DNA of 64,000 nucleotides from Candidatus Omnitrophota bacterium (GTDB taxonomy: Bacteria > Omnitrophota > Gorgyraeia > Zapsychrales > JBAZNR01), in contig JBAZNR010000001.1 in NCBI GenBank assembly GCA_041649175.1, positions 71,461 through 135,460 on the forward strand, given 5' to 3'. The translations under genes were made by a program, and so were the position numbers. The notes beneath the pieces are model-generated. The model did no database searches and had not been told where the DNA came from. It saw only the letters and a list, made by a program, of their open reading frames with translations. Within the stretch, counting starts at the first letter, position 1. The number at the start of each line of letters is the position of its first letter. Shown one piece after another: positions 28,042 to 34,024 of the stretch.

Positions 28042-28082
28042 AAAAAAAGGCGCCCCGACATTTTGTCGGGGCGCCTTTTTCA
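28042..28082. terminator. bidirectional Rho-independent terminator (shared by metF and gap)
   Basis: aaaaaaaGGCGCCCCGACattttGTCGGGGCGCCttttt: an 11-bp GC-rich stem with an A-tract on one side and a T-tract on the other. Confidence 0.7.
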
Positions 28083-28094
28083 TTATTCCTTTTC

Positions 28095-29114
<1,020 letters not shown>

Positions 29115-29119
29115 TTACT

Positions 29120-30133
29120 TTAACTTTTGGTTTCTAAATTAACTTCCCGTAAATATTTTGCCGCCAAATCAGGCGATGTCGGTACCAGATAAAATCCCGT
29201 TCCCCATTCAAATCCGGCCACGCGTGTTAATTTCGGAATAATTTCAATATGCCAATGATAACTTTCGTTATTTTCATAACCGACCGGTGCCGTATGCAAA
29301 AAGAAATTATACGACGGATTATTTAACGCTACCTTCATCCGGCGCAGCACCTCGCCTAAACTGCAAGACAGATGATACTGCTCCTCTTCGGTAATGCTGT
29401 TAAACGGTGCGCTGTGTTTCTTGGGGATGATCCAGGTTTCAAAGGGATATCGCGGAACGTAGGGGCAGAAACAAATAAAATCCTTATTCTCGGCAACGAT
29501 CCTTTCTTTATCCTGATACTCCTGATTGATCATATCGCAGAAAATGCACCTCCCGCGATATTCATAATAATACTTCGAACCTTCCAATTCTTCAAGAACA
29601 TATTTGGGGACCATCGGAAGAGCGATGAGTTGTGTATGCCCATGCTCCAAGGAAGCACCGGCAGAATCGCCAAAATTCTTGAAAATAAGGATATATTTAA
29701 AACGTTTATCTTCGGCTAAGCTTTTAGACCGGCTTTGATATTTCTTAACAACCGATAAAATCTCTTCATTGGTAAGATCCGCCAAGCTTTTACGATGATT
29801 CGGTGTTTCAATGATGATCTCATGAGCCCCGATGCCGTTCATCGTATCAAAGATCCCAAGACCAGAACGTTTCAATTCCCCTTCGATCCTTAAAACCGGA
29901 AATTTATTAGGGATCACCCGAACCATCCAGCCTTGCGTATCCGCTTTTGTATTGTGCGGACGAACGGCTTCGATTTCCGACGGAGTTTGATGTTCCCGGC
30001 CATAGCAAAATTGACAGATCGCTTCCTGCTTATAGTGATGTTCTTCTTTGTCGAAGTCTTGCGGGCCCCAAGAATCTTTTGTGTTAACAACCACCCAGCG
30101 GCCGACAATGGGATCTTTGCGTAATTCCGCCAT
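29120..30133 (-). CDS. galT: galactose-1-phosphate uridylyltransferase-family HIT enzyme (paralogue A, catalytic motifs intact)
   Basis: CQFCYG zinc motif; FKNFGDSAGASLEHGHTQ aligns with E. coli FENKGAAMGCSNPHPHGQ (HxH nucleophile present). Confidence 0.8.
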   Translation of the reverse strand: MAELRKDPIVGRWVVVNTKDSWGPQDFDKEEHHYKQEAICQFCYGREHQTPSEIEAVRPHNTKADTQGWMVRVIPNKFPVLRIEGELKRSGLGIFDTMNGIGAHEIIIETPNHRKSLADLTNEEILSVVKKYQSRSKSLAEDKRFKYILIFKNFGDSAGASLEHGHTQLIALPMVPKYVLEELEGSKYYYEYRGRCIFCDMINQEYQDKERIVAENKDFICFCPYVPRYPFETWIIPKKHSAPFNSITEEEQYHLSCSLGEVLRRMKVALNNPSYNFFLHTAPVGYENNESYHWHIEIIPKLTRVAGFEWGTGFYLVPTSPDLAAKYLREVNLETKS

Positions 30134-31162
30134 TTAGATCTCTACCCTTCTTAGGAATTCCGCCGTCTTTTCCGGCGGAATTGAACAAATATAAAATCCG
30201 GTACCTTTTTCAAATCCGGCTACATGCGTTAAGCGAGGCATCACTTCAATGTGCCAATGATAATCTCCTTCAATGGTGTTCCACTCGGTGCTTTTTGATT
30301 TTCCTCGTCGAAACGGTGCTGAATGGATCACGTAATTGTAGGCCGGGTCATTTAATCCTATTTTTAATTTCTGTAAGACTTTTTTCATCATTTCGGCTAA
30401 ATCATATTCAAATCCAATGATCCCTTTGGAAAAATCACAACTATGTTTCTTGGGTAAGATCCATAGCTCGAACGGAAATCTGGCGGCAAAAGGCGAAATA
30501 GCCAAAAAATGGTCGGATTCTAAAACCACTCTGGCTTTAGACTCAAGTTCCTGCTTAATGAGATCGCAATAAACGCATCGTTCGTGGTAAGAGAAATACC
30601 GTCGAGCTCCGACCAATTCTTCTTTAACGCGCATCGGATTAACGGGAGTGGCGATGATCTGAGAACGCGTGTGGCGGATATTTCCTCCGCCGGCTGACCA
30701 TCCGTAATTTTTAAACGGCAGGACATATTTAAAACGCGGATCCTTTTCCAGATCGTTGATGCGCACAACATATGTTTCAAAAACAAGCTTGATCTGCGCG
30801 GCATCTAGATCAGCCATATTGGCAATGTGTTCGGGGGTTTCAATGATAACCTCATGTGCCCCGACATTATCCATCACATCATAAAGCCCATGGCCGCGGC
30901 GCTGAAGATTGCCTTCGATCTTTAAAGCCGGAGCTATGTTAGGGACAACACGGACTTTCCAGTGAGGACTGTTGGGCGCAAAATGGCTTCTGACCGCGTA
31001 AATCTCGGGGGGAGTTTTTGACTCTTTATGTTCGCAAAATGGGCATTCACCTTCATCGATGGTTTTATGATTAGAATCGATGAAGGTTCCCGGCCGACGG
31101 GCTCGTTCCGTGGAAACAATGATCCATCGTCCGATTATAGGGTCTTTGCGTAGTTCTGGCAT
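30134..31162 (-). CDS. GalT-family HIT protein (paralogue B, nucleophile motif altered)
   Basis: CPFCEH zinc motif; FKNYGWSAGGGNIRHTRSQ has only one His where HxH is expected. Directly abuts paralogue A. Confidence 0.75.
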   Translation of the reverse strand: MPELRKDPIIGRWIIVSTERARRPGTFIDSNHKTIDEGECPFCEHKESKTPPEIYAVRSHFAPNSPHWKVRVVPNIAPALKIEGNLQRRGHGLYDVMDNVGAHEVIIETPEHIANMADLDAAQIKLVFETYVVRINDLEKDPRFKYVLPFKNYGWSAGGGNIRHTRSQIIATPVNPMRVKEELVGARRYFSYHERCVYCDLIKQELESKARVVLESDHFLAISPFAARFPFELWILPKKHSCDFSKGIIGFEYDLAEMMKKVLQKLKIGLNDPAYNYVIHSAPFRRGKSKSTEWNTIEGDYHWHIEVMPRLTHVAGFEKGTGFYICSIPPEKTAEFLRRVEI

Positions 31163-31191: not shown

Positions 31192-31219
31192 ATTATATCA
31201 CAAAGGGAGGGTGGTGCAA
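31192..31219 (-). promoter_or_regulatory. sigma70-type promoter upstream of the galT pair (TTGCAC-16 nt-TATAAT)
   Basis: The minus-strand read is gatTTGCACcaccctccctttgtgaTATAATccatcacattattcatttcatctaaatttATG. Confidence 0.4.
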
Positions 31220-31225
31220 ATCAAT

Positions 31226-32170: not shown

Positions 32171-34024
32171 TTATGAATCTACATTAATACTGATATTAAC
32201 ATCTTTTTTTCGTTTAAATGATTTTAACGCTTTTTGAAGCACAAGCCGCATTTTTTTATGGGATTTTGATTTCAAAAGGATCGTAAACCGGTATTTGCCG
32301 CGCAACCTCGGAATAAAATCCGGTTGCGGATCCAAGATCTCAACTTGTTTTCCTTTATTGTGTTCATTCAACAACTCATGGAAAATTTGGATCTGTTCAC
32401 GGGCTATTTCTTCTTTAACCGCGCGCAACCCAACGGAAACAAAACAAAATAGCGGCGGAAACTTCAGTTCCTTACGAAATTTGATCTCTTCTTTGTAAAA
32501 TTTATCAAAATCTGACTTTAAAGCCGCCTGTAGGCAATAGTTATCCGGAACATGCGTTTGAACGATCAGCTTTTCTTTTGCCATGTGCCGAAAATCCATC
32601 AGCAAGGCAAATGTTTTTTGGCCAGAGCGAAAATCCGCACGGTTTAATTCCGCATCAAGCTGCATAATGCCGATCAAATCAACCGATAATGCGTCATGCA
32701 TTTTTAAAACCGCTTGAGTCGCGATAAGAATATCAAAATCTTGTGGAAATATCGCTGATTCCTTGTCAAAATGCGCCACCTTAGAGCCCGGAAAAAGACG
32801 GGCGATCTCGCTTTCCAACTTCTCAATTCCCATCCCGCTATAACGCAAATAAGAAGTATTACAGCTCGGACAAATGGTCGGCGCGGCGGCTGTAAACTGG
32901 CAATAACGGCAAATCATTTTCTTTTCTTCGAAAAGATAAGTTAAATGCGTATCGCACCTTCGGCATTTCATGGTATATCCACACTTGGTGCAACGGATAA
33001 GCGTGCTAAAACCTTTGCGATTCATAAAAAGAACGGTCTTGCCTTTTTTGCTTAAGATTTTCTCAATAGCCGCTCGCAGAGGAAAAGAGATCAGAGAAGT
33101 TTTTCGCGGATTAAACGCCGACATATCAACAACTTGTACCGGCGTCAAAGGTAAATTCTGAGCGGAAAGATCGACAAATCTTATCTTCTCTTTTGATGCT
33201 TGATAAAGCATTTCTACCGATGGGACCCGGCTTACGAAAAGAATATCCGCGTTCTCAATATCTGAGCGCATAAAAGCGATTTGGCTTACATGATAAAACG
33301 GCGATTGATCCTGCTTATAGGCCGCATTATTTTCATCCATAATGACAATAAGCCCTAAATTGACAACAGGAGCAAAAATGGTGGAACGCACACCAACGGC
33401 AACTTTAACTTTTCCTTCTTTGATCTTGGTCCACTTTTCCAGCTCTGCTTTGGGCGTTGAAGCGCGGTCTAAAACAACGATTTCTTCGGTCAAATTCTCT
33501 TTTAATACCCTCACCGCATCATCTAAAAGCCAATTTTCTGGAACGAGAAGAATAATGCCTTTTTTATTAAGTAATGTTTTTTGAATATTTTCCAAGACAA
33601 AGGCCCAGGTTTTGTTTTGATCCTGGCCGCGCAAAAGAATAATTTCTTTTTCTTTTGAAACAACCGGAGGATTTTCACCGCCGATCATTTCCGTCGGTTT
33701 AGGTTTTCGCAAAGCAACCGGAAGGCTTAATTCGATCGCTTCGCCCCAAGAACAAAAATAATATTCGGCCATCTGTTTTGCCAAAAGAAGGTGCGAAGGG
33801 CCCAGAAGTGGGGTTACATCCAGCAGAGAAAGGATTGGCTTTAAGAATTTAAATTTACTTTTTTGGGATAATCCGACAATGAATCCAACCCGCTTTGTCT
33901 TTCCGAAAGAAACGACAACACGTTTTCCGACGGAAATTCCCTGAGAAAGAGATTCGGGAATTGAATAGTCAAACGGGCCTTCCACCGGAAGGCCGACTGT
34001 AACCTGGGCTACCGCATACTTCAT
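32171..34024 (-). CDS. priA: primosomal protein N' homologue (PriA) with degenerate helicase motifs
   Basis: N-terminal 3'-DNA-binding domain; Cys4-Cys4 zinc region (CTKCG...CRRC...CRYC...CPSC). Walker A is replaced by LLRGQDQNKTW, DExH by IMDENNAAY, motif III by FVSRVPS, and the motif VI arginines are absent. Confidence 0.85.
   Translation of the reverse strand: MKYAVAQVTVGLPVEGPFDYSIPESLSQGISVGKRVVVSFGKTKRVGFIVGLSQKSKFKFLKPILSLLDVTPLLGPSHLLLAKQMAEYYFCSWGEAIELSLPVALRKPKPTEMIGGENPPVVSKEKEIILLRGQDQNKTWAFVLENIQKTLLNKKGIILLVPENWLLDDAVRVLKENLTEEIVVLDRASTPKAELEKWTKIKEGKVKVAVGVRSTIFAPVVNLGLIVIMDENNAAYKQDQSPFYHVSQIAFMRSDIENADILFVSRVPSVEMLYQASKEKIRFVDLSAQNLPLTPVQVVDMSAFNPRKTSLISFPLRAAIEKILSKKGKTVLFMNRKGFSTLIRCTKCGYTMKCRRCDTHLTYLFEEKKMICRYCQFTAAAPTICPSCNTSYLRYSGMGIEKLESEIARLFPGSKVAHFDKESAIFPQDFDILIATQAVLKMHDALSVDLIGIMQLDAELNRADFRSGQKTFALLMDFRHMAKEKLIVQTHVPDNYCLQAALKSDFDKFYKEEIKFRKELKFPPLFCFVSVGLRAVKEEIAREQIQIFHELLNEHNKGKQVEILDPQPDFIPRLRGKYRFTILLKSKSHKKMRLVLQKALKSFKRKKDVNISINVDS

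Follow-up and report, generated by a model that had tools for sequence, protein, structure and literature searches.

We analyzed two adjacent galT-like genes in a 64,000-nucleotide stretch of a Candidatus Omnitrophota genome (NCBI GenBank assembly GCA_041649175.1, contig JBAZNR010000001.1, positions 71,461 to 135,460 of the forward strand; hereafter the window, from whose first letter all coordinates are counted) and found that the two genes have lost complementary residues of the GalT active site. The upstream gene, B, encodes an arginine in place of the nucleophilic histidine, while its downstream paralogue, A, keeps that histidine. A no longer has the two arginines corresponding to E. coli Arg28 and Arg31, which are present in B, and the cis-acting Asn77 and His166 remain in A but not in B. 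We therefore consider it likely that the two proteins function only as a heterodimer, in which one active site is composite and the other degenerate.

Two GalT-Like Paralogues and a Single Nucleophile

On the minus strand, gene B comes first (30134 to 31162) and gene A second (29120 to 30133), and both were identified by open reading frame, Pfam and PDB match. B encodes a GalT/ADP-glucose-phosphorylase-like subunit of 342 amino acids without the nucleophile, and A a putative catalytic subunit of 337 amino acids with an intact HxHxQ motif. The first-pass annotation of this DNA had described two galT-like genes of about 340 amino acids with no gap between them, and this holds to the nucleotide: the TAA stop codon of B directly abuts the ATG of A. 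B is also 100% identical to a protein of a Candidatus Omnitrophota metagenome-assembled genome (MAG), encoded on a 1.2-Mb contig.

A full-length comparison of the two proteins gives 45% identity (E = 1e-110), and each scores above the gathering threshold for both PF01087 and PF02744. Both pass the TIGR00209 galT cut-off of 102.1 (scores of 125.6 and 105.5) and miss by far the NF008724/PRK11720 equivalog cut-off of 448, scoring 140 and 114 bits. The best PDB match of both is Arabidopsis thaliana At5g18200 (1Z84; E = 6e-68 for A and 1.2e-67 for B), and from matches at E of about 1e-67 the fold is unambiguous. ADP-glucose phosphorylase had been anticipated as a comparison, and At5g18200, not Leloir GalT, indeed proved to be the closest characterized homologue.

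We set the register of the nucleophile position by HMMER alignments to At5g18200 (PDB 1Z84), in which we took His186 as the nucleophile because the structure of the H186G mutant (2H39) marks the position. The motif of A, LEHGHTQ, contains His164 and His166 (29636 to 29644, minus strand; codons 29642–29644 and 29636–29638), corresponding to the zinc ligand and the nucleophile, and His166 aligns with His186 of At5g18200. The motif of B, IRHTRSQ, contains His164 and Arg166, and the arginine, encoded by a CGT codon (30665 to 30667, minus strand), aligns exactly with At5g18200 His186 and E. coli His166. Arg166 is flanked on both sides by residues identical to those of At5g18200, with no register-shifting indel nearby. 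The nucleotidyl-acceptor motif HxHxQ is thus present in A (HGHTQ) and absent from B (HTRSQ), as had been read from the letters of the two motifs. We also considered another histidine of B at the nucleophile position, the alternative that the first-pass annotation had asked to be checked, and rejected it: in the alignment with E. coli GalT and At5g18200 no other histidine of B fills the position, and the anchors His164 and Ser167-Gln168 on either side fix the register. Judged by domains and motif together, A is a full member of the class I GalT family (IPR001937; the GalT branch of the HIT superfamily) and B a member by descent that lacks the catalytic hallmark.

Complementary Losses of Conserved Residues

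To compare the paralogues across species, we aligned 57 A-clade and 57 B-clade sequences (see below) with 148 single-copy HxH relatives, At5g18200 and E. coli GalT, and we extracted the columns that are at least 80% conserved in the 148 single-copy relatives (about 78 columns) and lost in one paralogue only. The list was short. In E. coli numbering unless marked as At5g18200, the A-specific losses are only Arg28, Arg31 and At-Ala241, and the B-specific losses only Asn77, His166 and At-Gly120.

The equivalents of Arg28 and Arg31 are arginine in 56/57 and 55/57 of the B sequences and in 5/57 and 11/57 of the A sequences. In the window, A carries Asp20 and Gly23 at these positions (Asp20-Ser-Trp-Gly23; 30065 to 30076, minus strand), while B keeps both arginines (Arg20-Ala-Arg-Arg23; 31094 to 31105, minus strand), which we propose are donated in trans to the active site of A. 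Conversely, all 57 A sequences, or nearly all, keep the equivalents of Asn77, Lys78, Phe79 and His166, with histidine at position 166 in 57/57. Position 77 is serine in 52/57 B sequences, the Lys78 and Phe79 equivalents vary, and position 166 is arginine in 46, histidine in seven, lysine in two, and tyrosine and cysteine in one each. The reciprocal pattern is found in every pair, including the seven whose B still has His166, and because all sampled lineages show it, it goes back to the root of the Omnitrophota sampled here. The residue at position 166 of B has since switched among R, H, K, C and Y, which are single-nucleotide neighbors.

The equivalents of the zinc-site residues Cys52, Cys55, His115 and His164 are present in A and B of the window and in 96–100% of both clades, the second Cys/Cys/His/His quartet (At5g18200 Cys216, Cys219, His255 and His310) is conserved at 96–100% in A and B, and the C-terminal half is retained in both; B had been said to keep its CxxC zinc site and C-terminal half, and the alignment bears this out. 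The most degenerate B sequence (P0131) has lost CxxC and HxH and keeps RARRP and the C-terminal GFEKGT loop, so that exactly the parts proposed to act in trans survive. In that locus neither partner has the first CxxC (the A-type protein, L087:6013-7020, reads SPFIYE and the B-type protein P0131, L087:5001-5999, reads ISFTE), and HAHSQ is intact in the A-type protein. At least one lineage thus does without the first zinc site.

B-specific signature columns number only three, namely Ser77, Arg166 and a threonine within a B-only insertion, and A has none. The insertion, of about nine residues (RRGKSKSTEWNTIEGD region, B residues ~286–300; 30262 to 30306, minus strand), precedes the HWHIE motif and has no counterpart in A, At5g18200 or E. 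coli GalT; it might be located at a heterodimer-specific interface.

Conservation of the Tandem

None of the 120 closest database homologues of B (63–76% identical, mostly labeled Omnitrophota) has histidine at the nucleophile position, which is arginine in 115 and lysine in three, with one threonine there and one sequence with glutamine at the preceding histidine. Scanning one genome per species returned 80 loci. In 56 of them, a B-type gene has an A-type gene immediately after it on the same strand, which together with the window gives 57/57 Omnitrophota species-level loci; these are labeled Omnitrophota or, in some third-party assemblies, "uncultured Planctomycetales/-ia," with the same synteny. 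The 23 loci that belong to other phyla (Binatia, Nitrospirota, Acidobacteriota, Myxococcota, Desulfobacterota and others) have a single HxH gene each.

In an independent scan of metagenomes with A as the seed, five A-clade loci were found, and B lies directly upstream in all three that have upstream DNA. Three very divergent B-like cluster representatives were also found in priA-fmt-B-A contexts. Altogether, the B-then-A tandem is present in every recovered Omnitrophota locus with enough flanking DNA, comprising 57 species-level pairs and six metagenome loci. One apparent B without A (L083; P0129 on Logan contig SRR6487168_63) was discarded, as the contig appears chimeric or inverted, with fmt-B followed by a truncated opposite-strand priA that runs into the 3′ end of B.

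The absence of the nucleophile and of other active-site residues from B could indicate that it is a decaying, functionless duplicate and A alone the enzyme. We regard this as highly improbable. The frame of B is intact in at least 57 species, its Arg28 and Arg31 equivalents are kept in 96–98% of sequences, the zinc ligands are kept, and the 120 homologues agree in lacking the histidine and, in 115 cases, in the arginine replacing it. When the same species pairs are compared, B-B distances equal A-A distances (ratio 0.99), and purifying selection on B is therefore as strong as on A. Conservation in at least 57 species and equal rates effectively refute decay or an artefact.

The two genes are also tightly spaced. 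The distance from the stop of B to the start of A is between –17 and +6 nt in 45 of the 53 measurable loci, TAATG-type overlaps being the commonest, and such spacing is the usual signature of translational coupling.

Strong conservation, the B-specific insertion and the signature residues could also be expected of an enzyme with a new function of its own. B might be active by itself or as a B:B homodimer, for instance as a hydrolase or as a transferase working by direct displacement, with the arginine stabilizing the transition state, and A might be a separate, ordinary homodimer; some relatives without the RxxR motif do appear to stand alone. Several observations make an independent B quite improbable, however: the nucleotide-binding Asn77 is lost along with the histidine and the Lys78/Phe79 equivalents vary, exactly the trans-acting elements are kept in B and lost from A in every pair, the genes strictly co-occur and mostly overlap, and neither the zinc site nor HxH survives in the most degenerate B copies.

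A Putative Heterodimer with One Composite Site

The structural literature provides a geometry for these losses. In human GALT, the glucose-1-phosphate site consists of the C-terminal loop of one chain and Gln188 and Asn173 of the other (PMC5081055). Relative to Gln188, Arg48 (E. coli Arg28) belongs to the opposite chain and Asn97 (E. coli Asn77) to the same one, and E. coli Arg28 and Arg31 contact UDP-glucose (PMC5081055). According to a 2026 preprint, class I GalTs and At5g18200 strictly require the neighboring subunit for a complete pocket.

Applied to the pair, this geometry would have A supply the cis half of the site, with the nucleotide-binding Asn76-Lys77-Phe78 (E. coli 77–79), the zinc ligand His164, the nucleophile His166 and Gln168, and B the trans half, with Arg20 and Arg23 (E. 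coli Arg28 and Arg31, contacting the sugar phosphate) and the C-terminal GFEKGTG sugar-binding loop. Following the ping-pong route of the family, His166 of A would attack the α-phosphate of a nucleoside diphosphate (NDP)-glucose, most likely ADP-glucose, a covalent nucleoside monophosphate (NMP)-enzyme would form and glucose-1-phosphate would leave, after which phosphate would take the NMP to give the NDP; the reaction would also be reversible. The second, symmetry-related site, formed by the HxR of B and the Arg-less arm of A, should be incapable of this chemistry. An A:B dimer would thus have one complete site and another that is defective on both sides, while an A:A dimer would lack the arginines at both sites and a B:B dimer the nucleophile and Asn77 at both. 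Cotranscription with gap and translational coupling of B and A would provide the two subunits in equal amounts.

The first-pass annotation had paired a catalytic subunit with a partner that was either a pseudoenzyme or of altered specificity. The pairing itself is supported, given that B has no alternative histidine, is constrained as strongly as A and belongs to a conserved, coupled pair with reciprocal losses, and of the two readings of the partner, the reciprocal losses speak less for altered specificity than for an obligate heterodimer whose single working site is composite.

Not every residue of the degenerate site has been lost, and B could instead be a regulatory subunit of the same heterodimer. 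The site would then serve as a noncatalytic effector pocket, comprising Arg166, Asn153 and Gln168 of B and the C-terminal loop of A, in which phosphate or a sugar phosphate tunes the site of A, resembling the noncatalytic subunits of ADP-glucose pyrophosphorylases. B retains Asn153 (100%), Ser167 (96%), Gln168 (96%) and the zinc ligands, arginine is strongly preferred at position 166 (81%) and so is not in free drift, and the trans loop Gly-Phe-Glu is kept at 98% in A; in human GALT, the glucose-1-phosphate site is made up of the residues corresponding to Asn153 and Gln168 and of the loop of the partner chain (PMC5081055). These residues may, however, be conserved for purely structural reasons, position 166 also accepts H, K, C and Y, and P0131 and P0129 have lost most of the site yet remain in a pair. 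Nor is an effector identifiable from sequence, and we consider a regulatory B unlikely.

Gene Neighborhoods and the Likely Substrate

In Omnitrophota, the conserved synteny is priA-fmt-B-A-gap, with gap, the glyceraldehyde-3-phosphate dehydrogenase gene, downstream of the pair in about 40 of the 57 loci. The genes that follow gap include pgk in nine loci and glgA and/or GH57 in seven. The first-pass annotation had placed the pair beside gap and apart from galK and galE, and we found the same: the start of gap is 23 nt past the end of A, neither a true galK nor a true galE adjoins the pair, and the window has just weak GHMP-kinase and SDR matches more than 10 kb away. Given the failure of the equivalog model and the lack of true galK/galE nearby, the pair is not a Leloir GalT.

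The relatives with a single gene show a strong link with glycogen genes. In 27 of the 36 metagenome loci (L094–L126) they directly adjoin a same-strand glgA gene, encoding a GT5 glycogen synthase, and in 12 of the 23 genome loci of other phyla (L052–L078) they have GlgA or GH57 branching/glucanotransferase genes next to them, often in clusters with the order GH57 branching enzyme, galT-like gene and glgA. No glgC was noted among the annotated neighbor gene families of the single-copy galT-like loci. The adjacency to glgA suggests that the single-copy enzymes have a role in the supply or turnover of ADP- or NDP-glucose for glycogen. Combined with the homology to At5g18200, the glgA/GH57 neighborhoods point to the reaction ADP-/NDP-glucose + Pi ↔ glucose-1-phosphate + ADP/NDP, and the enzyme would feed or drain the substrate pool of glycogen synthase, in either direction. 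We see the chances as evenly balanced that the Omnitrophota pair acts on ADP- or NDP-glucose in glycogen metabolism and not on galactose.

Omnitrophota MAGs are predicted to make glycogen (PMC8542988). A bolder proposal, which we consider rather improbable, is that they make ADP-glucose for glycogen synthase by running the heterodimer in reverse, replacing or bypassing GlgC, with the dead second site as an allosteric sensor of sugar phosphate or phosphate. The conversion ADP + glucose-1-phosphate → ADP-glucose + Pi would save an ATP equivalent, and a sensor site made of Arg166, Asn153 and Gln168 of B and the loop of A would give the regulation that GlgC normally provides. If this were true, At5g18200-like genes that adjoin glgA, as they do in many phyla, would signal a widespread and undescribed route to ADP-glucose that does not depend on GlgC. 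Our literature searches, which included Omnitrophota glycogen genes, found no paper on an association of galT-like genes with glycogen clusters or on a bacterial ADP-glucose phosphorylase.

Observations Weighing Against the Heterodimer

Several observations weigh against an obligate heterodimer or against parts of the proposed mechanism. The placement of Arg28 in trans derives from one sentence on human GALT citing earlier homology models, and from the E. coli GalT structures, which presumably have the same arrangement. The chain of Arg31 is not placed by any source that we retrieved, so that, of the two arginines, just Arg28 is documented in trans. A few single-copy HxH relatives, P0122 (L084/L085), P0200 (L130) and P0251 (L131, beside glgA), lack RxxR and have no adjacent partner; they are exceptions to the logic by which a partner supplies the arginines, and the arginines are therefore not indispensable in the family. 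An A:A homodimer, or A alone, might likewise keep some activity.

In the degenerate site, B keeps Asn153, Ser167 and Gln168 at 96–100%, residues that would be needless in a wholly functionless second site, so that this site may not be inert, and seven B sequences have histidine at position 166. On the metabolic side, a search of the 64-kb window for glgA and GH57 genes found none, and we infer the substrate from homology and from the gene neighborhoods of relatives. Among the exceptional relatives, P0122 resembles B (53%) more than A (43%) and yet has both His166 and Asn77; its gene lies between lptD and ruvX.

Transcription Unit, Wider Window and Origin of the Pair

In the spacer between fmt and B, a consensus scan predicted a promoter-like site, TTTGCA-17-TATAAT with TG (31192 to 31220, minus strand; 10/12 matches). 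The gap gene (28095 to 29096, minus strand; Pfam Gp_dh_N and Gp_dh_C) is followed at its 3′ side by a strong terminator-like hairpin detected by a sequence scan, with an 18-bp stem and then a T run (28043 to 28081, minus strand). The predicted promoter, the 23-nt distance from A to gap and the terminator after gap make it probable that B, A and gap form a local transcription unit with gap as the third gene of the operon.

In the window as a whole, 57 of the 59 open reading frames of at least 150 amino acids are on the minus strand, and the cumulative GC skew drops steadily from position 1 to 64000. The region between 36 and 55 kb contains a cluster of sugar-nucleotide and glycosyltransferase genes, among them one GHMP-kinase-like gene and several that resemble SDR epimerases.

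Two genes upstream of the pair is a PriA-like gene (32171–34024, minus strand) with just the PriA 3′-DNA-binding and C-terminal Pfam domains and no helicase domains. Its Walker A motif reads RGQDQNKT (canonical GVTGSGKT) and its DExH box DENN (canonical DEEH). Across the 36 PriA homologues of the related loci, the motifs are canonical in 24 and degenerate in about eight, which come from the window's own lineage; one Omnitrophota lineage may thus have an ATPase-dead PriA.

In a neighbor-joining (NJ) tree of the full data, the 57 tips of the A clade group together, as do the 58 tips of the B clade. Bootstrap support for the A clade was 23/50, and that for the B clade is unreadable, as the B-type sequence of L014 was mislabeled in the count (scored 0/50). 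The branching order of A, B and the single-copy clade is nearly a trichotomy, and the tree does not decide between a duplication inside and outside Omnitrophota. The B copies with His166 nest within the Arg166 clade, in a tree too weak for calling this a reversion.

Comparison with Known Systems

GalT-family enzymes are textbook homodimers, best known from the defects that cause galactosemia, and pseudoenzyme partners are common in biology. Our literature searches found no report of a heteromeric GalT-family enzyme or of a pseudoenzyme partner in the GalT/HIT family. If the heterodimer is real, it is a clean example of the transition from a homodimer to an obligate heterodimer, with two composite sites cut to one and the equipment split over two genes, and it would offer a natural half-of-sites enzyme for mechanistic work. 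Hundreds of Omnitrophota proteins labeled "galactose-1-phosphate uridylyltransferase" are probably noncatalytic partners, whose annotation would have to change. Across the family, the link appears to be with glycogen synthase and not with galactose use, which points to an unstudied bacterial step in the supply or turnover of ADP- or NDP-glucose.

The closest comparison is At5g18200, reportedly an ADP-glucose phosphorylase (PDB 1Z84, 1ZWJ and 2H39) and said to have been described by McCoy et al. in 2006. It belongs to the same family with the two-half-barrel HIT fold and matches A and B over their full length. The reaction of this enzyme type, ADP-glucose + Pi ↔ glucose-1-phosphate + ADP, proceeds through a His-AMP intermediate. 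The shared features are the HxHxQ motif (in A only), the first zinc site (equivalents of Cys63, Cys66, His133 and His184), the second Cys/Cys/His/His quartet and the GFExGTG sugar loop. Whereas At5g18200 is a homodimer with two equivalent sites, the Omnitrophota pair consists of two paralogues that appear to carry half of the catalytic equipment each: B has arginine at His186 and serine or another residue at Asn94, and A lacks Arg41 and Arg44.

With the class I GalTs of the Leloir pathway, such as E. coli GalT and human GALT, the pair shares the Pfam domains and a passing TIGR00209 score, and the sites of the GalT dimer are built from both chains, as the composite site of the pair would be. 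It differs from them in sequence (about 27% identity, far below the PRK11720 (NF008724) cut-off), in having no adjacent galK/galE and in a gene context of gap, pgk and glycogen genes, and it is probably heteromeric and not homodimeric.

A division of labor between paralogues is known from ADP-glucose pyrophosphorylases, which pair catalytic and noncatalytic paralogues (GlgC and GlgD in Firmicutes and the small and large subunits in plants); the bacterial pair is encoded in tandem and works in glycogen synthesis. By analogy, the Omnitrophota genes are a duplicated sugar-nucleotide enzyme, encoded in tandem, in which one paralogue would be catalytic and the other its noncatalytic partner. GlgC/GlgD, in contrast, have a nucleotidyltransferase fold with a left-handed β-helix, not the HIT fold, and use ATP and glucose-1-phosphate with no covalent intermediate. 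The "dead" subunit described here would also differ from theirs in its part in the reaction, giving residues of the catalytic site in trans and thus going beyond regulation.

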